64,000 nt of DNA from Candidatus Omnitrophota bacterium (GCA_037146775.1 JBAWWL010000001.1:69464-133463), one strand, 5' to 3'; shown: positions 27,001 through 60,000, counted from the first letter of the stretch. The notes: generated from the sequence alone by a model not told the origin. Numbers and translations are program-made.

Positions 27001-30000
27001 TACTTATGGGCAACTTGCTAGCTCTTCAGTTCTTCAACATTATCCGGTTGAATTTTATTGGAATAGAAAAGAAGTTTATCCGGTTGCTTGGGGTGATTTT
27101 AATGAACCTGGGCATAAATGGCTTGAGGTTCCGGTATCAAATAGGATTAATTTTATGCCAAACGTGGCACAATATATCCGTTTTATCGAGCTTCTAGAAG
27201 GTTTGGGTATTCATACTGGTTTCAACGATCCAAACAGCTTAAGAACTTTACAAGGAAATCCTTGTATTCTGGGTGTTGTTGGTAGCCCAGGCACCGGAGC
27301 AAAACATCCCGCCATATCATTCTTGAAGCCCGATCAGCCAACCAATATTGTTATTGTTCAGCTTGGCGATGTTGCGAGCTTGAGCGATGAAGATTATATT
27401 AACGGATACGTTGTGGCTAAACGCAGGCAAGGAGCAGTAATTTTGTCAGCGCACTTAGTTACAATTGACGCGGTGCTTTGTTATGGCAGAGACAGTCAAG
27501 GGCTAGATATATTTGAGGTTGTTTTGCCTTCTTCTGGCGCAAAACTTATCTCCAGTAAAACATTTCCAGTAAATGGAATAACTAGCTCGCCGCTCAATTC
27601 TCACCCAGTACTCAGTACTCAAGACTCACGACTAAATAAAATCAGTTCACCGCTATCAAGTAGGCGTTCCGGCATTTCCCGCTTTAAAGACGAATTAGCT
27701 GAATGTGAAAAGTTTAGCGGGCTTTCTACTTTGTATTCTCAAGGGGTGCTTGGGCTTCAGCCCGAAGACGAGAGTATTTTTTCTCAAGTACCGCGTGCGG
27801 GATATTTTTATGAATTCTGGTGGCCAAGTACGTTTAAAGGGCCAGAATATTTAAAACTATGGAATATGGAACTTTGTTGGAATGGTTATCAAATTGCTTT
27901 TGGAAATATTAAATTTGTACCCATAGAGAAAGACGGCCGCCAGGGTTATGCGGTTTCGCTGTATACGTGTGACAGTTATGTATTCTTTACCGGTTTCGGT
28001 TTCGTTTATGATTTATTTGCCCGCATGCTTTTACGTTCTTTTGATATTGCCAGAATCCAGGGCATTGGTCCTATTATGAGGTTGGACAGGTATTATCATT
28101 CCGGAATTGATTTATCGCGCGACAGGGATGAGAAAAAATATGTGCATATTTTGCATACTTTGGGTTTTGATAAACATTCCACGCGTTTTGGCTATCTTAG
28201 AATAGATGACCGCGGATGGATGAGTGCTCGGCCGCAAGATTTCTATGCGGCACTTCGCACAAAAAGGCGTGAACTTTTTTATGCAAAGCGAGCCCAAAAA
28301 ATGCTTGGTAGCGGTCAAACGCCCAGCTTTTTAGATTGGATGTCAGGAGAATGGAGAAACGAGAGAGCTATCGAAAGTGTGCATAACGAAGTAGCTCTTA
28401 ATATGATATGTGAACAGCTGCGTGCTCACGCAACAGAAGTTAATCCAGATATCTTTTCAAGAGTAATAAGTAGGCAAGTTTATTTAAGCAGCCGGCCGGT
28501 TTCTTCGGCGATTTCGATTATTCCGGATAGCGCAGAGATTAACCGTATTCATAATCAATTCAGCGGCGAATTCGTCCGTAAACTCATTGTGTGGCGGCTT
28601 GATGCCGCAGGACAAACACGCGCACATACCTTAGATGTTTTGGTATACAATCAACTCGATACTCAGGGCAAAGAAATAATGAAAGAATTACTTAGTCACT
28701 GGCCTCGGGAAGCAGAAATACTTAGCAGACTTAATGATTTGTTGAGTTGCTCTATAGATCATCGTTATCGCAGTAGCCATCTTGATTTTCAGGCGGCATT
28801 TGAATTATTGGATACTATCGGTAGAAGTTCAGCGCTCATGGTTACACATGCCGATGTTTTAACTACTATTCTTTCTAATGAGGAACTCGGTAAAGAATTA
28901 GAAGCGTTATTGTTGTCAGCATTGTCTATCGCTCGTCCCGTTCCTCAAGCAATTACCGATCAGCTTCCTTTGGTTGATGATGCTTATCTTGCTGTTTCAA
29001 AGAATGAAGCGGGCAGCATTGAGGCGGTAGAGTCTATAGTTTTTGTTTCGTATGGAGGAAGTACAAACACGGTTTTTCTATGGAAGAATGCTCCGCATAA
29101 TTCGCTTATACCTTTATGGTTTGAGAAAGGATATATACAAGTTTCTGGTTTGTATCGGGATTTTGACGTAGGCAGACAATTAGTTGCTTTTGCTGGAGAG
29201 TCTGCGGTAGGCGCTGACAAAAATATGGAGTTTTTGCTTTCAGGATTTGCTGCTGATGAAGCATTAAAATCAATGGGTTTTCGGCGTGGAATCAGCACCT
29301 ATAATACAGCCGAAATTAGGCAAGTTATCACAGCATTTTCTCGCGCTACTGCTGGGAAACTACACCAAAGCGTGTTGGCAGGAGATACAGAAGGCCTGCA
29401 ATTACTTAATACTTTGCTTCGCAACGCTTCAAGCTCGCCGCTCCAGAAAAAGCCTCAGGAAAAATTTAGTGCAGATTCTGGTTTCTCTCCGCTTGATGGC
29501 TCTTCGAAAGCCCCTGTTGTAATAAATAATCCGCGGCTTATCCGGGTTCATTTTGACGGTATTGCTAGATATGTTCCACAGGGACTGGCGGTTATTGAAG
29601 AACGAATTGCATCTTGGTTAAGACGTAATCCTATTTCTAGTCAGACAAGTCTTTTATACTATCCAAAGGACAACTTTTCGGCTCATGAAATTTTCACTAC
29701 AACCGGGTATATTCCGAATGAAGCTTTTTTAGGATTTGCCGAGAGTGAATTTATTTTAACCGGTGGGTCAATCGTCTGCTTAATTAACGCACTTTATTCT
29801 TTATGGACGTACTATGCTCGCAACGGGCAGGGTGTGCGTTTTATTGTCGCCCACGATTGTTGCTATGCCGTAGGTAAACCAGGCTACTTTTTATCTATCG
29901 TAAATGGTGATTCCCACGATTTATGGAAAAAGCCACATGAGGGGATTTTAAGAGATTTAGGTATTTTGTATTACCAAAACCGTATTGGCGGTTTTCCTGG

Positions 30001-33000
30001 CGAAAACCCTTGCGGCGCGTCTATTTTAATAGAGAGCGTAGATAGTATTGATGATATTCAGGTTTCAGAAATAAATCAAACCCATTTCTGCCCTAGTATT
30101 ACTATCTCTGCTAGTTCGTCCAGCTCGTCGCTCGAAGAGGGTATAACCAAATCCCACCCCGGAGGTGGGCTTTGGTTGGATATGCCGCAACGTTTCAGTT
30201 CGTATCAGGATATCAACTCACGACTCACGACTTATGACTCACGACTAAATAAAACTAGCTCGCCGTTGTCAGCAAAAGAGCTTACGGTTGCAGAACAGGC
30301 TAAGCTTGTTGAAGCAGAACAAATTCTTGCCGCAAGAAGAGAGTCTGCGGATTTTCTCTCAAGAACATCTGCGTTATATCCGGGAATAGGCAAAACCACC
30401 GCTATCTTTAGGCTGATGCAGCAACTTTTTGGCGGTCAACCAAAAGAAGATGCTTATCTGCAGTTAACCTATCGCTGTAGTTTCGGTTGTGATGATTGTA
30501 TTGCTATTAAGGTGTTGCAAGGCTCCGGTAGAATAGAAGCCGATGAATCAACATTATATAGATTGCTCGATAGCCTTAAAGGATTCAAGCGGATATGGTT
30601 TGTTGGCGCAGGAGAAACTACTGCCTGGGGAAAAGAAAACTTATTCACGCCGAGAGTAAGCGATAAATTTATCCGGCTAATTCAGTATGCCTGTGACTGT
30701 GTTGGTCCTGGTGGCAGGGTGATGATTGTTACCAATACCTACCTTATTCCCGAAGAAGAAGCTTTGCAGCAGGAGTTTTTCGGCCGATTCCAGCGCGAGA
30801 ATATTACCTGGGTTGTGTCTGTCGATTATTTCCATGAAGAGAAACTACGCCAACATCACAATAAAGAATTAGCAGCGATCACTAAATCTATGGAAAAGCT
30901 TGCTTACCGCAGGTTTATTAAAACTGCTTACGAAATGAGATTTGTAAATTCTCATGATGAAACTTTACGTCAAGAGATACTTGAGCATTTTGGGCTATAT
31001 AACAAATACTTAACAAGCAGAAATGATTTTGCTATTCATGACCCGGTTGCCATGGGAAATGCCCAAAGTCTTTCCGGTGCGCGGCCACTAGATCTTGCAG
31101 CGCTCATCAAAGATAACCGCCAGCCTTCCAAGTTGGTTCTTTATGTTGATCCCCGGGGCAATGTCGTTACTTTACAGTTTGTCGCATATATGGAACAGAC
31201 AACTAAAGATATGTTGCACCAGGTGTCAGATAGCAAAGAGAAATTTGTTATTGGTAATATTTATGCTAAACCGCTTGCGGATATTATCGCGGAGGAGTTA
31301 TTACTAGGAAATTACCGTAGAGCCTATCGCAGAGATATGTATTATTTCGTGCAAGATAGAATCAGGCGGTCTATAAACGAAGAGAAGAAGGCAGAGACTT
31401 TTAATCGTTCCTTATCGTTTGTGGAGCGCAGTGTTGTCTGGTATGTACTGGGAGAAGTTGAGGTAGCCCGCGCTTATCTTAACGTACCATGTGTTACCCC
31501 TGATTTGCGCTTGAATGTTTTGGATACGGTTTATCGTATACTTCTTGAGGCTAATAGCATTGACGCGGTAAGTTTTACCCGTGATTGTTTCCCGCAAGAA
31601 TTTAATGCGGAATTCCTTAAAGAGAACGGAGTTGAGCTTGGCGATGCCATGGCCGTTCTTTTTTCTGACCGGTCGCTACGCTTGGCTATGGAATATAGTA
31701 ATCATTTTAATGTATTAAGTGATTGGTGCGGTTTTCCTCGGATCTGGGCGAACTCTATTGATGGACATAAATTATGTTGTCCTGTCTATAGGTTCGAGTC
31801 AGTAATGCACCATATGAGTTTTCATCCAGGCAGAAATCTGGGGGTATGGCAAATAACTCCAGTTGCGCCTGGAGGAGAACATATTGAGATTAAATTAACG
31901 CATGGTTGCAATAACAGTTTACGCATTTACCGTGAACACTACGCACTCGACCATGCTGGTGTCGGCTCGCACTGTATCGGTTTAGCTACCGATCAATATG
32001 CTACTTCTTACTATTGCATGGTAGAGGATTACTCCGCTATGCAAGATTTATTCTTTGTTATTCAACAGGCAGTTAATGCTAACAGGCAGTATCAACGGTT
32101 AGCGAGCGTTTGTCGTTCGCTCGGTGAATTTTCTGCGCGTATAGATCGTGCCGAAATTTCTTTTAATAAAGATTTTCCGCAAGCGCCTGCTGTCATGGTT
32201 ATTGGGCAAAGAGGAATAAGAGAGGATAATCAAATCGCAATGCGCCAAGACGGTACTTTTGTGATTGCTGATAGATATATACTTGCGCAAGAACCCCAAG
32301 GGCAAAAGGCAAGTGTACAGTTAAAAACCATAGTGGTTAATTTTGCGGCAGCTTGTGCCGCACAATTACCTGCAGAGAGTGTGGAGTTGGTAAGGCAAGT
32401 GTCCGAGAGCGCTTTTGGTGATGGGTTCGCCCGTGGTTATGCTTCAAGCGCTATAATCTCTGATAACGATGTTGGCTCAGCCAACTCACCGTTAGTAGCT
32501 ATGCAATTTTCCGTAACTTTTGATAAAAGAGCCATTTTTCCGGATTCAAATGGCCGCGATAATAAAAAAACAGGAAACAGAAACAATACAAATTGGTTGC
32601 GGCGGGATCGGGGCTGGCCTACCTTTCCGTGGCTGGCGGAGGCCAACTTCCCTGCCGTACCTTCCCGTTTACGTTTTACATTGCCTATATATATAGGTAA
32701 GGGTTTTAGGCAGCCAGATAGCCGCGGCCCGCCAACAGGAGTCTCTAATTTATCTGCTTACTCGCTCGCCAAAAATTTCCCCGATAATCAATTAAGTTCA
32801 CCCCTCAGCTGTTCCTCGGAGGCCTTAGGAAGAGTTCGTAATGCTTTGTCCGGACGAGAGTGGTATTCTGGTCATGAAGAATTAGCTAAAGGAATGGTAG
32901 ACGTCTTGGTGGCAGCTTTTCAGAGTAAAAATATTGATCCTTCCAACCGTTTACGTTACGGAGTTATTCCTGTGATTGGTGCTGCTAAAAACTTGGACAT

Positions 33001-36000
33001 ATTTATTCAGTGCATGCAGGCTGCTATTGATATCGCCCAGCATATTGTTACGCCGGGAGAACACGGTATTGATAAATGGTTTGGCCCGGATGCGGCTTTT
33101 GCCGTAGATTTTGAAATACCGGATTGTGCTTATGGTACAAGTGGGTCGAATGACTTAAGAAGTAGACTAGCCGCAATACAAACAAAAGCTGAATCTAGGC
33201 TATTAGTAAAAGCAGCGAAATTATCCTGGAAGCAACATTTTAGAATTGGGCGTAATTTAGGCTATACCAACTGTATACATTCCGGCCCCCTTGGCCCATC
33301 TTGGTCTCCTGGATCGGTTGCTTACGGTATAGCGGCTATTGGTGCCTACCATAAATTTATTCATAACTATAGTACGGTATTAGAAGATATGCTTGTAGGA
33401 AATGGCGAAGCTGTGCAATTGATGGCAAAATTAAGCAGACATATTCGTTCGCAAAGAGAACTTATCTATCAAGGAAACCTTCGTCGTTCAGAGGATTTTG
33501 TCGCCGGAGTTACTGTGCGGGAATGGCAGTGGGATGAAGAATGGTGTCTATACCCGGAATTAAATCTTCAGTATAACGCAGTAGTTAGCACTATCCAGAG
33601 AATAAAACATTTTGATCAGGTGGTTATGCGTATTATAGGTGATATTACCAGTGTTTATCGAATGAAGAGAGGAAAATTTTCCTCTTTACCGCAATGTGAA
33701 GAAGAGGCAATACTAGCGCGGGAATATCTTGATTACATAAAGCGCCAACATTGGGATAGCAGATATCCTTATCTTTGGCCGCCTGTGTATCGTGCGGTAT
33801 TTTTACTGGATTATTTAGGCAAATATATTGATTGTAACGGAGAATCCACACAGGAGATTATAAGAACCGGGCAGGCGCTTGATGTCGGTATTGAATGGCT
33901 TGCTACTAGTGGAATGGAGGTACCAAGTTGGTTTGTTCGCCAAAGAAAGATTATTGAGTTAGCAGAGCAATATGGTGTACCGCAAACTCCCAAAAAATAT
34001 TTGACCATACTACAGAAAGCTTTGCAAGAACCTACTCCTTTAGGCTGTGACCAAGTCTGGCACGCACCAATAGATTTTACAGATTGTGTAGAAACTAAAT
34101 CAGCGTCAGTAATCTCTTCGACAACAGAAAACATTGAAGAGCTGGTTGTTATCGGGGACGTACACGATAATGTATCTGGCTTAGCAATATTGCTTTCGGA
34201 TATACGCCAGTATTATCCCAGAGCTCGTATGATTTATTTGGGGGATTACGCGGATAGTTCTGATGACAAAGCTGATCCCCGGGAAACTGTACGGGTAATT
34301 AACTCTGAGAAGGAACAAGGATCGATACCTATTTTGGGTAATCATGATTTTGCCATATTGCGGGCAGTAAAAGGTGACAGAGAGAAATTCGTTTGGTGGC
34401 TGGATAATAGAGGAGTGCATACTTTTCACAAAATACTTCGTGTAACGCCTGTTTTTGACGTATCCGTTGCCGGAGCAGGGCTCACGGTTGACGAAAGCCA
34501 GGTAGCACAGGCGCTTAAAAAAATGCAAGAAAACGAATTTTTCCAACTTCTGGCGCAAAATTACAGTGAATTGCCTTTATTTTACCGTAATGATGCTTTG
34601 GGTATACTTTGCCTCCATACTGGGCCAAGCCTTGAAGTCAGACAGCTTAATATTGTACAAGACACCAAGAGCCTAGAGGTATTGAATCGATCTTATACGA
34701 TTAGAAATTATAATCAGCGGGATGTTTGGGAATTTCTCATGTATAAAGGATGGCATAATGTGAAAGAAGAAAAAGTTGAAAGAGCGTGTAAACTTTTCCA
34801 CGCGCCCTACCTCGTTCTGGGGCATATTATCCAACGTAAAGAACCGTTTTACCGGCGTATCGGCAATGCTTTTATGATCGATAATAATCTTCAAGGCTAC
34901 CTGTTTGTTTCTAGAGAAAGAGGAATAAGGTTTATACGTCTTTTGTCTGATTCAGCCCGCGATGAAATAGCACTGGTAAGTGCTTCCGAATACACCCAAC
35001 GTTTAGCTGAATTTAGGAATTTAGGAGATACCCACGCGTCTTCCGCAATAGAGAATTCACAACGCCCCGTAATGAAGAAAACGATAAGAGTAATGCGGCT
35101 GTTGTCTGTGGTAACAATACCAATAGCTGCGATTATGCTTTCATTTTATTTTGGTGGTTGGTATATTATCACGGTTAAATCAGGGTTTTTTACCGCTCTG
35201 CTTACGATGTCTATCGTCGGCGGTATTTCGCGTGGTTTGGGAATGTACGTTAACCAAACGCTTAAAGGAGAACATTTTAACCGTAAAAACGTAAAGAAGA
35301 TATTGCGTTGGGCATTGTTTGGAGGGTTGTATTTAGCGATATTTGTCTATGGTGCATGGTTCTATATTTTAAATACCTATATAACCGGCATTTTTGCGAA
35401 TATATATTTAGAGGCAGCTTTAAAAACCTTCCTTGATGTAACGCTGTTTGCCGCATTTGTCGGCCTGCCGGCAAATTTCTTTATCCACAAATTTTTGGTG
35501 TGTTTGAACAAAGAAGAAATAAATTGGAAAAATACCAAAGAAAAATTTAAAAAATTATTTATTTATAATGCCATTTTCTGGATTTTGGGATTAACTCCCG
35601 GATGGATTTGGTTTCCGCAATACATTGTCCTTATTGCAGCAAACTTGGGAATACTATATTCCGGCATATTGATCTATTATCTTGAGGAATGGCTAAGAAC
35701 TAGCGACAAGAAGGTTGCTAATAAAGTTTTTGTTCAGCCAAAAGATAATCAAGCCCCACATTCCAGCTCGCCGGTTTCAGGCAAAGAAAATATTAAAGCC
35801 AAAAAGCAGGGATTAAGAACTTGGTTAAGAAAGAATTGTATGTTAGAGGATTGTGATGAAGCGCTTAGGGAATATCAAACTCAGTGGTGCCCGGCTGAAG
35901 TTGCTTTAAGAAAAATTAATCGCGATATTGGTGTAGATTCTGATAGCCCACGATATCTTTATCGTTACAGAGGACAGGCTCTGATGTTTGACGAATTGTG

Positions 36001-39000
36001 CGTAGTAGCTACAAAAATAATGGAAGTAAAACATACAATCAGAAAAGAAATTGATTACTCTGTAAATGTTTGGGAGACCATTGAATTTGCTTTTGATATT
36101 GCGCGTTCAAGAAGCAAGCATAATTACCTTGCGGTTATTTTTGAATTGGTGCCTGGTAAGCATGGCGTAACGGGTTGTTCGACGCATCGTGATATTGATC
36201 CAAGAGCTATCCGCCGTGTGTTTGTCTATAACAAGATTACAGAGCATTTCGAAAGGGTTTACAAAAAATATTTAACACAAAAATTACGCCATGCCAGTTC
36301 ACCAAACGTTAATGATCCATTGGACAATCTTTTATTGGCAAGAATTGCTCTTGATGATGCTTTGGCCGATGAAATCAGCCTTTATGTGAGTAATTGTTTT
36401 GTTAACATAGGAATACGCAAAAAATTCAGAGGTAATCTTGAGTGGGTGAGAGATTGTTTGCAATCAATCGCAAAAAAGATAAAAGGTGGGCAGTATTCTT
36501 TACTAAAGGCAAAAAGTCGTATCAAGGAATTACAATTAGTTGACACGCTTAAAAATTTATTTCACCTTGTTTTAACAAGAGATAAAGATATCTTTTTGCA
36601 TTTAAGCGATGAGCAAGTCCGTAAGATGGCTGGTGATGATGGGCATCTGCGGGTTGCGATCGACTTTATGTTTTTATTTTCCGAAAGCTTAGCTTCAAGC
36701 TCTAGTGTTTTTGCACATGATTCTCACTCCATACTCCATACTCAATACTCAATACTAGATAAAGCCAGTTCATCCTTACCAGAAAATGCTTCGCCGCGCG
36801 CTCCTCCTGAGCTTGAGGATTTACTCAAAATAGAAACGGGTTTACCGCATTTACTTTCACAATTCTTCTTAAAGAACCGAGTAATACTTGCCTTATTAAC
36901 CGCGCTCACTCATGCCCTTGGATTTTTATTTCTAGGAATGGCAAAACATTCACTTTATCCTATGCAGCTTGCTTTTTGGCTCTTTTTCTTCAATTTATTT
37001 ACCGCCTGCATAGTATTTTATCTTTTAGCAACTAATAATAGCTCGCAAAGTACTTTTAAATTCTTTTTTAGTCTTTTTAAGGTGCTACGTAAAAAAGACT
37101 TTGTGCACCTATTTTTACCTTCATTTATTAATGTTATAAGTTCCATTATTTTATATTTCATTTTTCCTTATGTCCCTGGAGCAATCATACTGACATTTTT
37201 ACAATTAACTATGTTTACCGCACTTCCTTTAGCTTTGCTTTATAATGGCGAAAGAGAAGGCTGGGGGAGAAAGATTGTCGGTGTTTCTATAATTGCTATC
37301 TTAGGATTATTGCCTATGCTTGCCAGCGCCAGTCTTTTTAATTTATATGCTTTATATGGAATTGTCATCGGACTTATGTATGGATTGATTACTCCTTTTG
37401 GCCGCAGGCTTTATCAGGATGTATACCGCCGCGCAGTAGTACAAGATAAAGACGCGCAAACTTTATTTGTTAATCTTCCTTATTTTACCATGGTAATCAG
37501 CTACGCAGTGGGTTTGCTGGTTATGGCACTTACAGTATTTTTTATTTTTCCGACGCCGCTGCTTACTTTTCAAGGAACTTCAATAATTACCGGCCGTATC
37601 CTATTGCCATTTTTTATAGGGATTACATTTTTTATCGGTACCTGGATTTGTGCCTTAAAGTTGCAGCAAATGTTTACATACAATATTTCGAAATATTCTC
37701 CCCTGACTGCATCTGGGCCAATGTTCAGTAAGCTTATTGAGGACGGCATTATGCATGGTGGGCTACTGCATCTTGAAATGTACCCTTCGTTACTTCCACC
37801 GCTTGCGGTAATTCTGGGTGCCTTTATTGCCGCAACCGGAAAGAACAAGAAAGATCATCTTTCGCAAAATAGTATGTCAAATATCGCCAAACAACAACTA
37901 ACTTCAGCTAATTCAGCTTCTCGAAGCTCTTCGAGTGTAGGAGAATCTTTTGTGGCCACACCTACTTTAGATAAAAATACTTATTTCGTTGGCTCGCCGA
38001 GAGGCAATTTGGTAAGAATCTCTGTGTCTGTTTCAAAAATAAGAGCAGTAAATGCTTTATATCGTTCACAAACAGATCCTACGCCGTGTCAGGGAGAGAA
38101 AGCTTTAGCGCAATTGGCAGCTTTTCCCGAATTTCCACACAATTATAATTCGCGACTCACGACTTATGAATCACGACTAATCTTATTTAAGGCAGACCAG
38201 TTTCGTCGCATTGCGAGCGGGACGAGTTCCCCGCTTAGTTTAGAGGATTTGGATTTAACTACGCAGAGCTTACTCGGCGAAGGCAGTTACGGAAAGGTTT
38301 TTAAGGTATTTCAGCGCTGTGCCGACACAGTGTATGCTCTCAAGGTTTATTGTGGTAGCTACCCTCATCAGCCGGATGAGCGGATGCCTTTAATCGATTA
38401 TTTGTTAGATTTTTCTCTTCGATACCCACAACTAACCAGTCGCGGTGCTATGCCACGTTGTTATACTAAGGGAGAGTGTTGGTTGAAAGAAGATAGGATC
38501 GTTGAGGTACCTAACGGGTCTTGTGTTTATCCTTGTGTTATTATGGACTATATTCCCGGCGAGAGCTTAGAGGCGCGCTTAGGGCAGGAATGGCGCACAA
38601 GAGGGAGTTGGCAGCATTGGATTAGTATTCAAGACGCCGTCGAACGCGAGTATGCCGGACTTGCGCTTTTAGAAATATTCGATGTAGTCAAGGCGAAACA
38701 GCTTTCCATTATCAAGGAAAAATTGGAACTGGCATCACGTATCGCGCAAGCAGTCAGTGCTTTCCATGCGGCTGAGATAGTTATTAAAGAATTAAAACCC
38801 GACCATATCATCTTAGGACCAGAGGAAGCGATAGCTTTGGTTGATCTTGAAGGTGCAGTTCCGGTTCATTATGATTGGCAGGAAAACTCGCGTAATATTC
38901 CGCGGGCAGTACGTCGTACACACACAAGAGGGTTTTCGGAAAACCCTGTTTTGCTACGTAGCGATGACCCTACTGTACTGGGAGAGCTAAAAACCATGCT

Positions 39001-45000: not shown

Positions 45001-48000
45001 TGGCCAAGATAAAGCACAACAGTGTTTGACCATGCTTCAGGCGGCGCAGTCGTTAGAAGCTACCCCACAGTTTCGTCCCGCCGATAACGATCGCACCAGC
45101 TCGCCGGCAGACAGAGGTCAGAGGCCAGATGTCAGAAGTCAGAATGATGCTAGTTTATTTCCCGATTTCTATGCGCCACACGCAATGTGCATTGCGCTAG
45201 TGGCTAGCTCGCCGGCATTTTGGGATAAGCATAAGATTTATAAAATATTAAGAGAGAACCAAATGTCTTCTTATGATATGCAAGAAACTTCGCTGCCAGA
45301 AGCTTTTGGATCACTACGAAGAGGTTTTAAGAGGCGTTTCGAACGGGTTAAAGTGCGCAACGCCGTAGTCGAAATGGTAAGAGATTTAGCCGGATATCGT
45401 AGCTCAGATTGCACGGAAGGTATTAAACCTTGCTCGACAGTATGTTTAGGGGTGCCTTGTGCGGTAATTGCTTCTGGTGGTGAGGTAACTTTATTTCAAA
45501 GAATGATTGCTGTTTTGAAACAGTTGGCGATTTCCTTAGATTCTCAAAGAAAAATTAATCCTTATCAGACGCTTTTACGGTTAAAAGATTTTGTGGATAC
45601 TACTCTTACTTTAGATGAGTTTAGCCAGGCGGTAGCTGTGGCTAATGATGCCGCAGCCTGGTTCCATGACCAGCGTGTAAGCTTTGAGTGTACGCTACCT
45701 GAACAGCGTTGGTATCATACGGGAGTATTAGCAATAGGAGAAAGAAGCGGCCTCAAGCATGCTCAATTACAGGCGATTATAGGAGATTTAAAATATTTTT
45801 GGGCGCTCTATCAGCTTCTCTGTATTGTAGAAGAGAAGTGTTGGGCATCAACGTATTATCATATATCGGAAGAAAAAAGTGATTGTTTAGGATTTACATA
45901 TTCAAAGGCATATAGGAATGATTATAATTATGCAGGAGAAAATTCCGGCAGTGGTTTTCTTAACTTTAAACCATCGCAGGCATGGATTTGTGCGCAGATA
46001 AAAGCAAAAGGTCTATTCTTGCGCAATCTTATTAACACTGTAGCTCCTTTTGTCGATGCGATGCGTACCTGCGAAGTAGGCAAGCGTTTCTTTGCCGCTA
46101 TTGATGAAATGATGGCAAGCGCCGTTTCTACGCGGCCAGAACACTCTGTTGATATCGATGAAACATATTCAGTTCCTAGAGGGGGAGACGCTAGCGATGT
46201 ATATCAAGGGCAAATTGAGGATACTTTCCATTATGTACATGTTTTATTAGTTCCTTTTCTTGACGTTGACCGCGCTCGGCATATCTTAGAGGCGGTTGAC
46301 TATAGCGCCTCTAGCCCAACTGAGGTCGGTATTCTTTTAGAATGTAATTATAATTGGCTAGAGGCCGAAAAGCATATTCTTCTTGAATCTTTTTCTTCAC
46401 CAGAAAAGATTTCTGCCGCAGCCCGCAGTCTTTCTCAGGCTCCTCAGGAGGCAGCCTGGGGCAAAAATTTTACCCCGCGAATTTATTATGAGCTGGCATA
46501 TTGGGCTGGCCATCCGAATGAACACAGGCCAGAGTATTTTAATTTACTCAAAATTATCGAAGCTTCAGTACGTAACCGTTTACACATTATGTCCGGATCT
46601 AAAGAAGAAAGGTTTTTCCAGGAAATTTATTACCTGCCAACAGCGGAAACACTAACGGGAGAGGTTTTGTTTAGTCTTCCTGAGCAAGAAGCTCCATATC
46701 AAGAAGATTGGGAAAGAGATCTTCTCAGAAAAACATGGCTATTTTGCAATATCTGTATGGGCCAAGCCCAGGGTTTTTCTGGGCGGATATTCGCTGATAG
46801 CCGCAACCGAGGAGGAATGGATGACTGCTCCAATTTTCTTGTGCCTTTTGGTTTATGGGTGAGTCGCATTAACTTGGAACTTAGCTGTCAAGGCTACAAC
46901 CGGCGTGCGTTTTTTACCCATCTTGGCGGCGCCTATGGTATGGTTGCCCAAGGAGGATCATCTAGACAAGTTTTTTCTGCCGAAGAGATAATTCAGGATG
47001 TGGTCAATGAGTATAAAATTGCCTTAGCATTTAAACTCGAAGAAGATTTAAGCGTGGGAAGCGCTTGGCAGAGAGCCATAAATAGTTTTAATCTGACCGA
47101 CACCGAAGCTTGGCGTAGAAGATTGGTAAAATTAGAATTAGAAGTTTTATCCCGGCAAGGATTTATCTTAGCCACAGAAGTCAGCAAGCGTTTAGGTTTT
47201 TCACCTACAAGCGCAGTCAGGGATTCTGTCAGTTCGCCGGTTACTCATAGAAAAACCAAAGAAGCAGAAAAACAAGAAAGAAAACCTTGGTTGCGGCAGG
47301 TTGTTTTTGGCCAGCTTACCTTTCCGTGGCTGGTGGGGGCTGGCCAGCCTGCCGTAGCCGTCACACATAGCAACAAAATGTTTTCAGCGACGATAAAATC
47401 GTATCTTTTTAGCAGTCTGGCTAATAAATCCCCTCCGGTTGCAGACTCTCCGTTAGTTAGTTCTTCGCAAACATCTAACTCAACACCCAATACTTATGAC
47501 TCGCGATTAAGTAAAAGTAGCTCACCGCAAGCCGATATCCTTTCAGACCCAAGCCCATCTTTATTACGCACACTTGGTATTTTAGAAGATGAATATATTT
47601 TTGGATACTACAGGGAAATTGCAGCTCAAAAAGTTTTAGAAAAGCTTATTCCTTACATTAGTCGCATGGGTCAACCAGGATCAAAGTGTTCGGAAGTTAA
47701 TGCTTGTGATGCAATGTGGGTTAATTATCTTGTCTATGCATATCTTTACTGTATTGGAATGCTCAACGGTATTGTAATCGTTCCAGCTTCGGGGTGCGGC
47801 ATTTTTCCGGCTCTATTCTCTGATACCATAGCCATTGATTTCGCATCAAAAAAATTACGTCAGAGCGATGATATAACTACGGTAGTACGATTTATGCATG
47901 ATAATTGCAATCAAAATCGTCGTGTGTTCATGAGGCGGTTATCTTGGGCAGCCAATGCATGGGATTCAAGGCTTGAACCTGACGCTAGGAATATTAAGCA

Positions 48001-51000
48001 TATAGATTTAGGCTTAGATACTACCAGCCAGTTACACAATAAAATTTTAATTATAAAAGGCGCATGGCGTTGGGCAGTAAGTAAGCTTGATCGGGGCCTG
48101 CAAAAAAAATGGACAGAAGACGTTCTTACCTGCTGGCATATTCAAGGAGGTAGAGTTATTTTTCTTTCTTCCAAGGACGGTGATGATGGTATACGTTTCT
48201 TCGAAGAACTTGGCTATGTGAATGTAAACCCGGTAGCGCACGATCTTTCCCTTGTCCTTTCTAGAATTAAACAACCGTATTTTTGTTGGAGTGGTTGCAC
48301 TATGCTTCTTGTCCCTGACAGAGTCGTTATCCTCGAAAAGCCTTTTATAGTTCCAACTTTAAATACTCCAGATGCAAGATTAAGGCTGGCTTCTTCGCCT
48401 TTGCACGATAGCCAATTTGATGAGCAAAACGGCGGAGAGCGCGAGCTTTCGCTTGACGGTCAGCCTGTGTGGGCGCAGTTTAAGAAAATTCGAGACCAGG
48501 TTTGGGCGATATTTAGAGAGAAGAAAGACGAGATTGTCAGAAGCTCTCATCCGGACTGGGCAAGTGTCATGGGTTTTGTCGGCGGCAAACTTGGGCTTAT
48601 GGCAAATGTTTTGTGGGCTGATCATCGTACTCAATTAGTAATGGCAAAGCATCTTACTCAGTACATGTGTCAATTGTCGCGTACTAGACACAGTCAAATG
48701 ACTGCCGAAGAAAGAGCGGAACTCGAAGAAGTAGGAATTACAGAACCTGGAGTATATGTGGTACATCCTTCTCCTTTAGTAGACTTAAAAGAAAAGCCCA
48801 ATGGTAGAAAGGCGCTAATTTGTTTTATTTTACATGAGTATTTACAGCTTTTATGTGAAGAGCAAGGTTTAATTGATGCGGAATTCGCTTATTGGTTTGG
48901 TCATAGCGGTATTGAAATTATTGAGGAAGAACTGCGTTTTGCTCATGAGTTAGGTTGCCTTGAGCTGGTCATCGCTGAGCGCAGGCGTTCTTTAGAGTGG
49001 TTTAAGAAAATACGTAAAGGAATACCTGAAAGATTAGTAAAAAGATTTGAAGCGCTTTTACAAAGAGCTGGAAGCGGAGAACTATTTAAAGCCGCTCCCG
49101 GCCAAGGGCTTTATCTTGATATTGCAGGCCAGGGCTTAGAAGATTTTTATAGGGATTTTTCGCTTGATAATCTAAATTTCGTTACCAGCAACAGTTCGGA
49201 GGTTTCTTTGCATCCCCAAAGGCCTTACGCCTTTGGATTAAGAAAATGCACTGCCTGCGCTTTTACGGCTAGTGATGGTGGCATAGCGGTCGCGCACTAT
49301 AAACCGGATGCATTAATGCACCAGGCAAGAAATACAGAAACAAGGTTTGCCCCTTCTTTAGCAAAAGTGCGTTTCTTGGAAGAAGTATTTAGCGGGATAT
49401 TAGATTATCAGCTGCAAGGACCAGCATTGTCATGGATGAGAGGGCTGGTTATATCTCCTAAGACACCGCAAGTCTTAGAGACACATTTACGTTCATTTTA
49501 CGGAAACGAGTTTGTAAATCAGCTTGGTGATTATTGTATTACACCGGAAGATACAACCAATTTTGTTGCCTCTCACTTAAAAGGCGTAGCGAGTTTGACG
49601 CGTCAAAAAAACTATTGCGTTGCTCCGAGAGCGCATCTTAATGTTTTTGTTATGCCGGATAGACATGTTGTCGTAGATACCGCACACGAGCATGCCTTAA
49701 TTGCAAGAGACAGTTATGATTTTAATATAGACGAGTTTGATCAACCAACAACAATTAGTTCTTCACCGTTGGCTCAGCCGCTATACCAGTTTACCCCAAG
49801 GCACCTTGCTTTAATACTTGATATAGCCAAAGATCTAAGGGAGAGAACAGGGGAGCAAATAAGAAAGGCCGAAGCCATTCTTAGAAGTAACTTTTTAACC
49901 GACGACGTAGGTGGCCAGTTAGGTCAACTTCAAGGGCTGATCTCGGATATTAACGCTGTGATTGATAGGGTCTGCGAAGAAATAAAAAAATATTTAGTAG
50001 CTATTTGTCGAGAAAGAGATTCTACCGGAAAATACCTTATTTTCTCCGCTGGTTTGCATGTCAGAGGAGATGAAGACGAGGTCGTGAGAGATGTTCTTTA
50101 TTTAAGTTTGAGGCATTATTTACAAGGGCGTTTTTTTATATCTACGATCATTTCGTTGGCGCTAGAGCAGAATGCATTAAGCGAAGAAAGAATTATAAGG
50201 TTACAAGAACACTTTTATTCTATACGGGATGCGATAGAAGGTTTAGCTTCCTTAAGTGATATTGTTATAGAGGATGGTAACTCTTCTCGGCTTTTGGTGC
50301 TTTCTCAGAAAACTAGTTCGTCTAGTGTGGATAATTTTTCCACGCAGCTAAGACTGTTGCAATCTTTCGACGATAAAGAGCTGCGGCGATGGACTATCCA
50401 GCAAATACGCGATGCGTCAGTACAAACAATAGAATTTTCTATGGAAATTCACGAAAAGTTTAGACGGTTTTGCACCGCTGAACTGGCTGAAGAAGCGATG
50501 AGTATTTGGCGTCAAAGAGGCCGCGCATTATTGGAGCTACCGTTTCCAAACAGCAACCCTATGGGTGAAGGGCCTTATTGGAAGTCACCCATAAACCAAA
50601 TTGCGAGCTTTCTTGGTGGTTTGGGGGTAAATGAACAAGATTGTCTATTAGAGGTTGGCGGAGCAGATTCCCTGCTTTCACTTTTTATGGCACACGCATT
50701 TAATCTGCATGCTACTAGCGTAGAGGTAGTGCGCGCCTGGTGTGAATATGCCGAAATATACCGTAGTATTCTTATTGCTAAAGGTTCGGTAAGAGATGGT
50801 CAGGTAGAGTTAATAAATGATAACTTTATCAATGTAGATTTTTCTAAATATTCCATGGTTTATTATATTGGTTTAGGTGCATGGAGAAAGTATGAGTTAT
50901 TAATAAAAATGTTAACAGTAAGGCCTGGCTGTCGAGTGTTAATGTATGGTGATATTGAAGAAAAAATAGAAAGTCGGCTGCTCATCTATCCTTACTTTTC

Positions 51001-54000: not shown

Positions 54001-57000
54001 AGGGCTCGGTAATAAGAACGTGTGGCATCTGAAATTTCACTATGAAAAAACAGCCAGCCTTAATAAATTATACGATATTCTTCCTACTTTTAGCGTAGAA
54101 GACAGTAAAAAACTTTTTGATGATTTTGGCGGCGGTATCACACAGTCTTTACGCGATGGCAAAACCGTTTGGATGTTCGGCATACCTTTTAGTTTTGACG
54201 GGGGAACTCTAGGTGTGAACATCAATGATGCCAGGATTGATTTTGACAGAGCCCAGCCTTTTGAAATTGCATCTAGTTCAATCGCCGATTCATACCCGCC
54301 AATGCAAGGTTTTAGAGAAATCCACAGAAGACGCACACCTATCTCAGGCAAGGAATATGATAGTCAGCTGTATTTTGATAGTGAAAAAAGAGCAGTCTTG
54401 TGGAAGGTGGATAATGCAGTGTTTGTGAGGAAATCTTACCAATCTCATCCAAAAGTAAATTTTTATCTTGCCGAGCTAAATACCCCGGTATCTGTGGTTA
54501 TGGAACGTATATTTATACGTGATCAGGTCAACGGCGATGAAACGCTTATTAATATGTGGGAGCCGCTATTTGGACACTATCTTTTTACTCCGCCCGAAAC
54601 CACCGAAGGCGCTATTTTTGCCATACAGGATTTAAGAGAAATAATTAAGGATAGAGTTTTTATCGATTTTGGAGCTGAGGCAGGAATCTTAAGTTTTTTA
54701 GCTATAGCATGTGGTGCCAGTAAAGTTCTTTCTTTGGAAAGGGAGTGGAAGCTTAGAGATGAAATCAGGCATAACAGGAGGATTAATAATTTATATGATT
54801 GGCAAGTCCAGGATTGTCGCGGCTTTGAGAGTGTGTGGCGGGACGAAGTCATGGGGGCGGTTGTGGTTATTAACATGGACGGTTATTTCTCTCCGGAAGC
54901 GTTACTTGAAGTATTAGATAAAGGAATTCCTGCGGCCATAATATTATCAGGCGGGCATTATGCCAGAGAAAGATTAGATCCGGTATTAGAAATATTAAAT
55001 CAATACGGATTTTCGAACCGGATTATAACAATAGAACCATTAATTGGGATAAATCCATTAGAGAGCAAGCCTTTTGCTACAATCATTGCAACCCGCAACA
55101 TGCGGTCTGTTTCGGTCATTAGCTCGTCTGTTAGTTCCCCGCAAACACCTAGCTCGATACCCATGGCTAATTACTCACGACTAGGCAAGGCTAGCTCGTC
55201 CATAGATAATTATGATGAACCGTATTTAGAGCTTCACGTTTTAGAGGAATTGAGTCTTTTTAGGGAAAAGCTTGAATATGGGATGAGCTTTTTTAAGGCA
55301 ATTCTTTATCATGGCACAGGATCGGAATTTTCAGAATGGGACATTAACTTAACGAGTTCGCTCTCTAGCCGTTTAGAGCCAGCAGGTATTCGTTTGAGTT
55401 TTGCAAGAGATTATGCAGCTGGGTTTGCTATAGGAGAAGAGGCGAGAATTATTAAGTGCCGCGTCAGTTTAAAAAATCCGTGGTATGTTTCACGAACGCG
55501 TTTTTTTGCATACTTTCTATTTATTGGACAAGCGCTAGAGGAGCTTGCTTTGAGGCGGGGAGTTACTTCAGAAGATAAATTGTCGATTCCCGAATGCCGT
55601 AGCTACGTTAGGCAACGCATGCTAGAGCAAGGATATGACGGGGTTGTGCGTTGTGATGTCTCGTGTATAGAGGTAATCGCCTTTCATCCGCAAGCACAAA
55701 TTGAAGTTATAGAAGTATTTTGCGCTAGCTCAGCGATAAGTTTATTACAAGACACAAAAGAAAAAATTATAAAGGCGCTTGAAACTAAAAAAATGCCGGT
55801 TGATATAGCTAAAGAGCGAGCAATACCCGCGGCATTCTCTGCTGTGGATAGTGTTTTTGATATTCATACTCGGCCACAAGCATATGAGTTAGTTCTGGGG
55901 ATGGCTCTTGGTTTGATAGCTAAAGAGATTCCTGTCTGTAGTACTTTAGAGTATGGGGTGCCTTTGGCGATTCGTGATTCTTGTGCTTGTTTGTATGTAT
56001 TTAGAGAAAATATTTTTTGGCTTACCCGGCTTGCTGAAGATTTGTATCTTTCGTCGCAAGGCCCCATAGATCCTTACCAAACCCTTATTTTGGCGGGAGC
56101 ACTTTATGGCGAAGTTAGAAGAATCAAGACGTTTGAGGGTCTTCTTGAACGGGCCAGGCAAGATGTTAATAGAGCCAGGGTTGGTAAATATCCTAATGAA
56201 GAAGGGGTTATTGAAGTTAATATCGGCACGCAGGAAATTAGTGTTAACGAAGTTGATACAAAAGGAGAAAAATTTGATTTCAAAAATCCCGTAGAAGTGA
56301 GCCAATTTAAAAGAGAACATGGACAAGCTATTGATACAGCTTTAGGCGAAAATTGGAGAGACGTTCTTTTGGCTCAAATAAATCGTGATATTGGTGGAAT
56401 TATCTTGGGCCATGAAAGTGTTTATGTAACTTTTGCTCATTGCTGTGGTGGTACTGTGCAGGGAAGAATTATTGCCAAAGTCAAGATTCCGGCTTATAGC
56501 TTAAGAAAAGCTTTAGATTCAGTTAGCGATGGCCATTCTGCAAGCTCTCCGTTATTAATAATAGAAAATTTTACCTACTGGAGTAATGATTTTGACGGTC
56601 GTTACAGCGAGGATAGGGCGTATCATTTTGCTATTGGTGGAAAACAGGTATGTATTTCTGATCTTGAGTATGTAAAGATAACTATTCTTATTAAGCCTAC
56701 TAAGGTGATATACCTTGCAGTAGACCACAATACAAGTTGGTTCCATACTGTTTTGGCGTATAAAGAGGGCATGATCGGGGGTAATGAATTATTTGCACAC
56801 ATAGATCATAAGCAACATCCCGATGACCGCGCAATAGAGGCTAATCCTCCAGGTCGGTATGAGGATATTGGTTGGCACATTCAGCATTTAGCGCAAGGAG
56901 GTGCCAGTATTACCGGATATGTTACAGCTTTGCATAAAACATTTCCTGATATGATATTTTTGTTTCTTAAGCAATCAGATGGTGGTTCGGATGGCTGGGG

Positions 57001-60000
57001 AGGTGTTAGCTTTGATTGGGGTGGCTCAATTTTTAATTTGCCATTAGAGTATTTAAATAAAATTAAGATTGCTAGTATTGACTTGGATATGTTTACTAGT
57101 GATGTTTCTTCTAAAGAATTACAAAAGAAACTCATAGAAGTGCTCAGCTATGTCAGGGTAGGAATGGTTATTATTTCTCCAGCCGGTCCACAGGAAGCCG
57201 GTCAGCAACAGGCAATATTAATGAAAGAAATAATTGAAGATTTACTTGATAAGTTGATTCCTGGATGGAGATTACAAGAATTGGGGAGTAATGCTTTCGA
57301 TCCAACGAAGAGTTCTAGTGCTGTTCTTAACGGTCATCATGAGTCCAGGCTTTATTACCCATCTATAACTATTTGGGCTGTTCATCCAACTTTACGACAG
57401 TGCAGAGAGGTGATTAAGTGGGTCGCAAAAATGCCATGGCGCAAAACCGCTATAGTAGTGATTATTCCTTCAGATTGGGAAATGGCCTTAAAGTTTCTCA
57501 GAGATCGTGTTATCGCCAATCAACACTATTTTTATATGTTTATGTGTGAGCATTATATAGACGACGAAGGATGGTTTAATGAACAAGATATGTATAAAAT
57601 CAATGAATTGCGGCTAAAACTATCCGGGCGAGGATTAATAGCTGACGATCATTATCTATACGGTCAAAATACGCCTAACTGTATGAATATTATAGCTACA
57701 TGTCTGGCTAGAGGACTTATTTATAAGGGGCAATGTTGCAGTCCGCGTTTTAGCCGCAAATATACTCCATGCAAAAATTATTGTAGCTCAAATAAACTTT
57801 TTGTTATTGAAGATTTTACAATTACTGGAAGAAAGGGAATTGGCGTTCTTAATGACGAACAGCGTCGCGATTATACTCTTTTGAGTTTACATATTTCTGA
57901 GATTGAGAGGAGATATTTTGATACCGGCAATGGCGCTACCAGTTCTCCAGCTATGCACAGAAAAATGAAAGAAAAAGAACAACAAGAAAGAAAATCTTGG
58001 TTGTGGCAGGTTATTACAGGTCAGTTTACCTTTCCGTGGCTGGTGGGAGCTGACCAGCCTGCCGCAGCCGTCTCGTATGGTTACAGAGTAATGTCTTTTG
58101 TGATGACAAAATCATATCTTTTTAGTAGCCTTGCTAATAAAGCCCCTCCGTCTGTGAGCGTTTCGTTGGTCAGTTCTCCGCAAAAACCTAACTCAATACT
58201 CGCGACTCACTACTCACGACTAGATAAAGCCAGCTCACCCAATGCAAAGATCTCAGCTACGGCAGCCAGAATGGCAGAAATTTTTAACAATACTATTACC
58301 CATCGCAGCGATGTATGCCATGAAGATCTATTATTGCGCAACCGGCGAGTCCGGGAACTAAAAATATTTGGAGATGCTCTTGTTGGGCAATCGGGAAAGT
58401 TTGATGATCTTGATATCCTGGGAATAAAACTTGAAGAATTAAAGGCTGGTAAGTTTCTAGAAATAGGCTCGGGTAAAAAATGTCTAATCGGTCGCTTTTT
58501 AATCGACCAATTAGAATTTGATTCCGCTAATGTTTATGCGATAGATCCTATGATGGAAGAACCCGGCAAAGATTTTGATAATAATAGCGGGCGCTTTGTA
58601 AAAGGTATCATAGAAGAAATTCCGGAATTATTCCGGGAAATCAGCTTTAATATGATATATGCAGCATATGTGTTTTCCATCAGAAGAGGTTCTATAAAGT
58701 CCGGTTTACGCAAGATTGACCCTGGAAAAGCAGCCCGAAATGTTGATGTATTTTTGGCGCCCGGCGGAACACTGATGGTGGCAGGTAAAGCTATGCCGTC
58801 TGACATGGCTTGTGAATTGGCAAGTAGATTAGCCCAGCCTTATATCTGTCAGCGACCGGGAAATCAACATAGCCTATATTATTACACAAAGCTTCAGACT
58901 TTTTCTAGCTCGCCGGGTTCCCCCAGCACCAGCAATAGCTCCAATTATCGTAAGACATTAGGCCTGTTTCGGAGAAAAGATGACATCGAAGCATGGAAAG
59001 CGCTTAATCCTGTTTCTCCTATTGATGAGAATAAGTTGCCACGCCTATTCCCTAAAGGGGTTACGTATGGGTCGCAATGGAATTATTTAAGAGGTGAAAA
59101 GTATGAAATGAAAGGATATGTGCATACTGGTTTAGATTTATTAGTTCCAGCTTCTACCCAAGTAAGAGCAATTGCCGAGGGTACGGTATTTATAGGAAGA
59201 TATAAACACGAAAAAGGTGAATATGTTGTTGTTGATCATGGAAAGGGAATGCTGTCCTTGTATATGCATGTCATTCCTCGAGTAAATACCGGACAGAAAT
59301 TGGCGAAAGGAGATGTTATAGGTGAGGTAATGCATTCATCAATACATCCATCCCATCTTCACCTCGAATTATTAGCAAATATGGAAATATCCACAGAGGC
59401 ATTTCCGCGTGAAGGAGAAGATACGTTGGAAGATAAGGAAATAAACAGGCGGTGGACTTTTATTAAATACAGTCGAGAAACGAACAGCTTGGATCCGTTA
59501 TTGGTTCTTCCACAGATAGCCGAAGGAGCGGTAATAGAAGATGATGATAGCATTTTGATGGGTGCCGATAAAGGTGCAGGCTACGCCAGCTCGCCGTCTC
59601 AATCAGTCTGTAGTCAACGGTCTACAGTCAACGGTCGAGAAAAAATGCAAAATTTTGGTGATAGGCTATTGATTATACCTGCCTGCCGGCCAGACACGGG
59701 CTATGGGCGAAATCACGCCAGTTCATCTATGTTGGACAGCAGCGTCGGCCTTTCTGTGAAATATGTGAAATTTTCTTCGCCAGGTATTCCTTTGGAGTGT
59801 GACTATAATTGGCTCCAGCTGCAAAAAGGTATTCTTCTTGAATCTTATGCAGGTAATTTGTCGCCGGAAGCCAGCCGTCTCTTGCAAGAGCCGCAGATAG
59901 CAATTTGGAATGATACGTTTACTCCGCGCATCTACCTTGAATTCGCATGGAAAACCTACCCCCCTCAGAATAATCCATGGGTTAGTATCTTATACAAAGT

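Follow-up and report, generated by a model that had tools for sequence, protein, structure and literature searches.

Why should a short piece of DNA remain recognisable, as DNA, at eight separate linkers of one gene? The question is raised by a stretch of 64,000 nucleotides (nt) from Candidatus Omnitrophota bacterium (GCA_037146775.1, JBAWWL010000001.1:69464-133463; hereafter the window, at its full length), which one open reading frame (ORF) occupies from end to end. A preliminary description of this DNA reported in-frame tandem micro-repeats at eight linker sites, conserved in their nucleotide sequence, and proposed that they are remnants of a small frame-preserving insertion element, slipped-strand expansion sites that modulate linker length, or signals acting at the RNA level. 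We find at the eight sites paralogous copies of a single inter-domain linker cassette of 60 nt. As to what the repeats within it are, the best explanation in our view, and one we hold to be reasonably probable, is a fossil heptanucleotide array, similar to that of the neuO gene and caught in a linker cassette, probably disordered, that has been duplicated within a giant polyprotein-like ORF.

The eight sites are all present, and their translations were given correctly in the preliminary description, which had however read the repeat as a decamer-like unit occurring one to three times. The unit is in fact of 7 nt (ACTCACG, ACTCAAT, ACTCCAT): Tandem Repeats Finder returns period 7 at 27606, 30216, 36726 and 58198, and three exact period-7 runs are found where codon shuffles give 0.04. 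As for the number of units, the array always spans five unit-lengths (35 nt), and only the number of units still recognisable differs from site to site, as a result of decay. The repeat is closely confined to these places. ACTCRCGACT occurs 8 times in the window against 0.06 expected and ACTCNNNACTCNNNACT 9 times against 0.03, always on the + strand; ACTCACG is found 8 times on the + strand, 8/8 within the eight sites and nowhere else on that strand, while the composite linker motif has 0 matches in each of the viral, genome and metagenome collections. Profiles built from the eight sites (nhmmer and hmmsearch) recover the same eight, plus one weak and strongly decayed candidate on the + strand at 48332-48400 (peptide NTPDARLRLASSPL, hmmsearch domain E-value 0.48), which we do not count as a member.

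When anchored on their downstream SSP codons, the eight sites align without a gap, in the same codon register and with SSP-type motifs 60 nt apart; there is no variation of length among them. The cassette of 60 nt, i.e. 20 codons, thus comprises an SSP, 3-5 polar codons, five heptamer lengths, AAA-NNN and a second SSP (AGC TCR CCG). The array starts at the second base of codon -14 and is followed by AAA-NNN-AGC-TCR-CCG, whereas the upstream SSP-type triplet (AGT TCN CCG CAA) precedes by 60 nt. The tail noted earlier, A(A/G)ATAAA..AGCTCRCC, holds for six sites; at 2555 it has degenerated, and site 38150 lacks it, the next SSP there coming 12 codons further on. The frame is kept, as had been claimed, but not through the number of units: the array, invariably 35 nt, is no multiple of three, so that the frame is maintained by the cassette as a whole. 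Besides, because 7 is not divisible by three either, the array is read in all three phases, which gives x-T-x-D/Y-S-R-L, that is, the SRL, TTY and DSRL of the first reading.

All copies lie on the + strand and differ mainly in their state of preservation. The best preserved is cassette 3 (30197-30265, peptide NSRLTTYDSRLNKTSSP), with the array ACTCACG ACTCACG ACTTATG ACTCACG ACTAAAT at 30216-30250 (period 7, 4.4 copies by Tandem Repeats Finder) followed by K-T-SSP. Cassette 8 (58172-58240) is the best nhmmer match (E 8e-14), with SSP, the array ACTCAAT ACTCGCG ACTCACT ACTCACG ACTAGAT at 58191-58225, then K-A-SSP; cassette 6 (47459-47527), with which it was co-duplicated, has ACTCAAC ACCCAAT ACTTATG ACTCGCG ATTAAGT at 47478-47512, then K-S-SSP. 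In cassette 2 (27584-27652) SSP precedes ACCCAGT ACTCAGT ACTCAAG ACTCACG ACTAAAT (27603-27637), which encodes TQDSRL and leads into K-I-SSP. Neighbouring units have been homogenised in cassette 4 (36707-36775; array ACTCCAT ACTCCAT ACTCAAT ACTCAAT ACTAGAT at 36726-36760, period 7, 4.4 copies, 95% matches), which ends in K-A-SSS, as does cassette 7 (55133-55201; SSP, then GCTCGAT ACCCATG GCTAATT ACTCACG ACTAGGC at 55152-55186). Cassette 5 (38129-38197; nhmmer E 1.1e-6) is truncated: after ATTCGCG ACTCACG ACTTATG AATCACG ACTAATC (38148-38182) the K-x-SSP tail is lost, the next SSP being at 38225. Finally cassette 1 (2495-2563; nhmmer E 2.9e-10), with GTTCACG ACTTGCT ACGAGCT ACTCACG GCTAAAC at 2514-2548 and then F-A-SSP, is the most decayed of the full-length copies.

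The cassettes are carried by a giant multi-domain ("polyvalent") frame, which starts at base 2 of the + strand and runs to 64000, that is 21,333 codons without a stop and past both edges of the window, so that the gene exceeds 64 kb; in the remaining frames no stop-free stretch is longer than 226 codons. In this frame the cassettes belong to a much wider regularity. The tripeptide SSP is found 51 times against 4.5 expected, and the pattern [AVSTCI]SS[PSA][LIVQAST], which we call the junction motif or a-S-S-P-L, at 77 sites (for example at positions 755, 6092, 14075, 29432, 39371 and 56543), when shuffles give 3.8; the median distance between sites is 245 residues. None of the 51 SSP falls inside a Pfam match; as these matches cover about 10.7% of the protein, we estimate the chance of this at about 0.003. 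Order-promoting residues drop near the junction motifs, to 9-35% in the cassettes compared with 37% overall. These two observations place the cassettes in linkers of the giant ORF. An AlphaFold2 model of residues 15420-15860, based on five aligned rows (the query, three internal paralogues and one distant homologue), gives a helical domain at residues 15448-15736 with a predicted local distance difference test score (pLDDT) of 80-93, and everything beyond it, including cassette 47459-47527, stays below 35. The cassettes sit in polar regions, and the only one modelled is in a low-confidence region, predicted to be disordered. SSP is not always a linker, since the one at residue 15465 lies within the folded part of the model. 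At the nucleotide level SSP is encoded by 35 distinct codon triplets, which indicates a constraint on the peptide, and AGC TCG CCG makes up 11 of the 51 against 0.35 expected, which indicates a shared ancestry. We regard the a-S-S-P-L sites as candidate sites of polyprotein processing.

Two small features accompany these junctions. The tetrapeptide NGIT occurs three times shortly upstream of junction motifs (20444-20455, 20552-20563 and 27572-27583, the last directly before cassette 2), and may be a further small linker module. Directly after the SSP junction at 45098, a second and unrelated heptanucleotide array, CAGAGGT x4.6, occupies 45112-45143 (peptide DRGQRPDVRSQN); its +1 frame meets no immediate stop.

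Part of the history of the cassette can be read from its copies. The units are positionally homologous: ACTTATG stands at unit 3 in three copies and ACTCACG at unit 4 in five, and 8/8 have an ACTA type at unit 5. The array from which they all derive was therefore imperfect from the outset, and the sites are not eight independent expansions. Derived variants are on the other hand shared by adjacent units at 36726 (CAT CAT AAT AAT) and 27603 (AGT AGT), which is not readily produced by point mutation alone and points to a local turnover of units. Outside the cassette, the 150 residues on each side are unrelated in 27 of the 28 pairs of cassettes, and the cassette is the only DNA family widely shared among the 77 junctions; it was thus copied between junctions independently of the domains. 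The single exception is the pair at 47519 and 58232, which shares an upstream block (z = 36) of about 77 codons. In this pair, i.e. cassettes 6 and 8, the proportion of synonymous differences (pS) is 0.36 for the cassette and 0.32 for the adjoining block, and this equal divergence means that both were duplicated together. We also considered that pairs of cassettes could be insertion scars bracketing a module (27644/30257, 36767/38189, 55193/58232), and rejected it, the partners not being consistently each other's closest relatives.

The claim that it is the DNA itself which is conserved is supported by two lines of evidence. First, SRL is written TCA CGA CTA in 6 of the 8 cassettes, although CGA and CTA each account for 8% of their codon family, so that this triplet has a chance of about 0.001 by codon usage (0.15 x 0.08 x 0.08); where SRL occurs outside the cassettes, it is mostly written with other codons. 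Second, Nei-Gojobori-type counts across all pairs of copies give for the array codons a pS of 0.35 and a proportion of non-synonymous differences (pN) of 0.30, hence a pN/pS of 0.85, for the K-x-SSP tail 0.71, 0.37 and 0.52, and for random blocks of the ORF 0.74, 0.73 and about 1. At four-fold third positions, 71% of the codon pairs of the array agree and 50% of those of the tail, compared with 26-38% expected from codon usage. Synonymous positions being as conserved as the non-synonymous ones, and rare SRL codons being retained, the similarity of the arrays is due to descent of the DNA and not to selection on the peptide. The comparison, which involves few codon columns and non-independent copies, is suggestive only: the array would be alike through DNA descent or homogenisation and evolve near neutrality, the junction tail being kept as a peptide.

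This pattern bears directly on the alternative that fares best, which we nevertheless judge unlikely, namely that (Y/D)-S-R-L-x-K-x-S-S-P forms an extended site at which the protein is recognised or cleaved, for instance by a protease cutting after Leu or at SSP, the likeness of the DNA reflecting no more than recent descent. Residues L, S, R and K are indeed present in 8/8, 7/8, 6/8 and 7/8 copies, the tail shows purifying selection (pN/pS of 0.52, its synonymous sites being close to saturation), motifs of the SSP type recur about 77 times at a domain-sized spacing, and the distant relatives presented below keep iterated junction motifs of their own as peptides with synonymous variation. Against this reading stand a pN/pS of 0.85 over the array and its rare codons, as well as the copy in which R has become I through two substitutions that track the repeat unit and not the amino acid; besides, about 69 other junctions do without the SRL-x-K extension. 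As for the enzyme, an M23 domain is the only protease that Pfam and NCBIfam detect in the window, and no embedded processing peptidase was identified with them; one conserved domain of unknown function, in which residues H, D, H and C are invariant and whose model reaches a pLDDT of 93.6, was considered for this role, but none of its fold matches was significant.

If the array descends as DNA, where could it come from? The best term of comparison is the poly-psi repeat of neuO in prophage CUS-3 of Escherichia coli K1, made of 2-93 copies of AAGACTC located two nt past the start codon; neuO is in frame only at copy numbers divisible by three, three units encode the heptad RLKTQDS, and the poly-psi domain is disordered in the crystal (PMC3046976; PMC9659370). 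Arrays of this type were confirmed in 25 IMG/VR contigs, with 3-32 units. Both systems are 7-nt tandem repeats within coding sequence, read in three phases with three units per heptad. The unit here, ACGACTC, matches AAGACTC in the same register at 6 of 7 bases, a match that may be a convergence (rough post-hoc chance probability 0.01-0.02), and the exact AAGACTC occurs once in the window, at 27621-27627 in cassette 2. The heptads are RLKTQDS there and x-T-x-D-S-R-L here, TQDSRL being identical at 27617. The peptide is disordered in neuO, and here the one modelled cassette falls in a low-confidence region; in both cases a frameshift leads to early termination. The difference lies in the state of the arrays: neuO has one long, perfect, 5' array whose copy number varies between isolates, whereas here there are eight internal and interrupted copies, each of five unit-lengths and equal in length. 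The cassettes are thus decoded like the poly-psi array, and by analogy their origin is probably alike, but of the defining features of such a locus that could be examined here, they lack both the long perfect array and any difference in length from copy to copy. Since none of the eight sites departs from the common length, the array looks more like a relic than like a functioning switch.

From these elements we propose the following history. The ancestral array would have been roughly ACTCAAT ACTCAAT ACTTATG ACTCACG ACTAAAT; a single episode of replication slippage, of the kind known from neuO poly-psi, would have produced it, after which it would have become fixed in an in-frame state and been stabilised by interrupting point mutations. 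The cassette would afterwards have been copied to other junctions, by segmental duplication, which is seen for 47459/58172, and presumably by gene conversion or ectopic recombination where junctions resemble each other. It would nowadays be a flexible spacer, in which only K-x-SSP is constrained as a peptide; K-x-SSP would be part of the junction grammar found throughout the protein, and processing may take place there. If a slip occasionally happened, translation would stop neatly at the edge of a domain; we take the stops responsible for this to be a by-product of unit 5 (ACTA-RAT) and not a selected switch.

These stops are nevertheless an argument for the next alternative, i.e. that the cassettes are active contingency (phase-variation) sites, where 7-nt slippage would shift the frame and yield nested proteins truncated at domain junctions, as an internal and multiplexed version of the neuO poly-psi switch. 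In 8/8 copies a frame+1 stop (C TAR) lies at the identical place, two codons past the S codon of the last SRL, and in 7/8 a frame+2 stop follows within 3-5 codons, when the background probability that both frames stop within 5 codons is 0.12. A purine completes the frame+1 stop in 8/8 although the frame-0 codon begun there varies (N, D, S, G, I). As these stops follow the array, a slip of one unit either way would end the protein at the linker. Moreover the heptamer family and the decoded peptide match those of neuO, and the homogenised units at 36726 and 27603 indicate that slippage has occurred. We hold this reading to be decidedly unlikely all the same. No perfect run exceeds 2.4 units (17 nt) and all the arrays contain interruptions, compared with 3-32 perfect units for the neuO alleles of phage contigs; the eight paralogous arrays have all the same length; they are internal and not 5'-terminal; and the copies derive from one ancestor, so that their shared stops are not eight independent observations. 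The earlier proposal of slipped-strand sites is supported in its first half, a microsatellite origin (period 7, three frames read, turnover of units); for its second, the modulation of linker length, the copies, being equal in length, give no evidence.

A bolder form of this idea, to which we would give slightly less credit still, is that the cassettes might be live, multiplexed truncation switches of a polyprotein gene and might at the same time serve as homology patches for recombining new domain modules. Were it true, slippage by a single unit in any of the arrays would halt translation in five codons or fewer, right at a domain junction, and a clonal population would make a graded series of C-terminally shortened enzyme strings. 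The principle of neuO poly-psi, a single on/off switch at a 5' end, would then be extended to setting from within how long a protein of more than 21,000 residues is and which domains it contains.

An insertion element seems more improbable again. The cassette would be a small, mobile, frame-preserving element targeting the junction sequence AGCTCGCCG, akin to the Rickettsia palindromic elements found in frame inside genes. What remains of this proposal is the copying at the DNA level: the cassette is common to junctions whose flanks are unrelated in 27/28 pairs, SSP codon triplets enclose it at a mutual distance of 60 nt, and no other DNA family is as widely shared among the 77 junctions. But terminal inverted repeats and hairpins are lacking, the single-sequence folds of the cassettes being no more stable than those of shuffles (z from -0.46 to +1.06). 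Nor do the enclosing triplets form the matched pairs expected of target-site duplications: those upstream (AGT TCN CCG CAA) resemble one another more than their own downstream partner (AGC TCR CCG), and since the two do not pair, the flanking SSP triplets are not fresh target duplications. All the copies lie in one gene of the 64-kb window and none in the viral, genome or metagenome collections, and we know of no transposition machinery for a unit of 60 nt, which counts further against this reading. The Rickettsia palindromic elements, reported by Ogata et al. in 2000, are said to be selfish, in-frame, palindromic insertions of 100-150 bp present in many genes. They share with the cassette the presence of short repeated DNA in frame at several coding places, where the surface or linker peptide is tolerated, but the cassette is of 60 nt, without hairpin, and known only within one gene.

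The last proposal sees in the cassettes a signal at the RNA or DNA level, where the very long transcript would be processed, where transcription would start or end internally, or where a protein would bind. It is hardly credible: the synonymous positions of the last 1.4 units (AC TCA CGA CTA) are unusually conserved and every copy is on the same strand, but common descent within an ORF already predicts one orientation and a fixed codon register, while RNAalifold finds 0 conserved pairs in the cassettes, their folding shows no excess over shuffles, the search of Rfam gave no match, and the promoter and terminator scans were at or below the shuffled expectation with none at a cassette on the + strand.

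The fossil, neuO-like array that we favour has its own weak points, which should be counted against it. No close relative was found in the collections searched. We can only infer the route by which a 60-nt cassette reaches unrelated junctions. The synonymous contrast between array and tail has the limits indicated above, and within the array L is invariant and S, R and K nearly so, which leaves room for some constraint at the peptide level. Lastly, the conserved off-frame stops could reflect a selected switch or an "ambush" function instead of a by-product. In favour of this explanation we count the CAGAGGT array at 45112, which is an independent second case of a heptamer beside a junction.

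If correct, it would provide a worked example of how linkers originate in giant multi-domain bacterial genes, a non-triplet microsatellite being fixed in frame and then copied between junctions, and it would link this origin to neuO poly-psi, the one heptanucleotide repeat in coding sequence that has been studied well. The micro-repeats are in themselves of moderate interest; the giant ORF and its junction grammar are more striking, and the junction motifs are concrete and testable candidates for cleavage points in giant bacterial genes. Should the cassettes prove polymorphic, they would represent a new way to tune the length of a giant protein.

Is the arrangement then proper to this gene? 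Megablast of 20 kb against plasmids and phages gave nothing, nor did word-indexed protein searches with two regions that have no database homologues, nor a profile scan of GTDB genomes and viral contigs; an exhaustive HMMER search gave only 8 weak multi-domain matches, and a profile scan of metagenomes one locus (L014). The only relatives found are remote multi-domain proteins, all from metagenome assemblies, and each has a private iterated junction motif: RTSP x6 in P0001 (on L013, 1497-6047), KPAEQDMAA x10 in P0003 (on L012, 1785-11411) and P[LF]AMAK.PE x5 in P0007. In L012 and L013, which were checked as DNA, it is the peptide of the motif that is conserved, its codons varying synonymously, and their linkers contain no heptamer array. 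Judged from the sequences compared, the heptamer cassette is specific to this gene, and the junction grammar appears to be a property of a wider class. Among the distant relatives on L012 and L013, P0007 and P0008, several begin with a hydrophobic N-terminus resembling a signal peptide.

Heptamers of this kind are also met in phage DNA. Contigs of phages containing (ACTCACG)2.4 were examined and discarded: they are unrelated contigs, 9 out of 10 of high GC content, in a number close to that estimated for chance. In high-GC phage contigs unrelated to the window, (ACTCACG)3.4 runs straight into (ACTTTCG)n (L008, 4031-4054 and 8273-8296; L010, 175-198). Arrays of (AAGACTC)3-6 are present as well in the viral contigs L017, L025, L026, L027, L028, L037 and L038, with GC contents from 26% to 57%; the flanks that were inspected, those of L017, L025 and L037, are unlike the neuO-type prophage contigs, and some of the arrays adjoin the related heptamers AAGACCC and AAGCCTC. 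A family of AAGACTC-type heptamers may thus recur widely in phage DNA. In cyanobacteria, the short tandemly repeated repetitive (STRR) sequences are tandem heptamers, mainly intergenic, genome-wide and made of other units (e.g. CCCCAGT); they have in common with the cassettes to be tandem heptanucleotide arrays, which are here coding. The window does not contain the cyanobacterial palindrome GCGATCGC, and no cyanobacterial affinity was found.

The ORF itself can be compared with two kinds of large proteins. The polyvalent proteins of phages and conjugative elements, reportedly described by Iyer, Burroughs, Anand, de Souza and Aravind in 2017, and MARTX, which are processed multi-effector toxins, are like it strings of unrelated enzymatic domains joined by linkers with proposed processing, and a weak ART-PolyVal match is found here (score 23.8, under the Pfam cut-off of 31.2); the present ORF is however far larger (>21,333 residues), with no embedded processing peptidase identified. 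To our knowledge, neither an iterated a-S-S-P-L motif nor a microsatellite-derived linker cassette has been described for these proteins. The second kind is encoded by the giant genes of Omnitrophota and other bacteria, ORFs of tens of kb with many heterogeneous domains, for which cleavage and its position are stated as an open question, and whose proteins show many transmembrane regions and SecA-like, dockerin and cell-wall-degrading domains (bioRxiv 10.1101/2023.11.21.568195; 10.64898/2026.06.07.730766). The terms linker, junction and heptamer are absent from both texts, and in the literature on giant genes we found no description of iterated junction motifs or linker heptamers.

By contrast with these published giant genes, most of the domains recognisable here are enzymes modifying small molecules or proteins. 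Pfam and NCBIfam detect about 12 differing families in the one frame, and thus many unrelated catalytic domains on one polypeptide: serine dehydratase beta and alpha, several S-adenosylmethionine (SAM) methyltransferases, HATPase_c (histidine-kinase ATPase), protein kinase, guanylate kinase, HAD phosphatase, B12/radical SAM modules, the peptidase M23 and an RmlD-like reductase, plus a DOT1-like match barely over its Pfam cut-off. The top matches of the serine dehydratase domain have 33-37% identity and are taxonomically mixed. Some modules are internal paralogues, with 30-48% amino acid identity (residues 3241-3590/3808-4139, 8552-8808/11669-11924, 15437-15700/19925-20188 and 5627-5912/16769-17053) and near synonymous saturation in the three pairs measured (pS 0.68-0.83); the order of the A and B modules differs between their two copies. 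In the translation of about 3690-5100, lastly, a hydrophobic segment resembling a transmembrane one is followed by several hundred charged, coiled-coil-like residues rich in E, R, Q and L.

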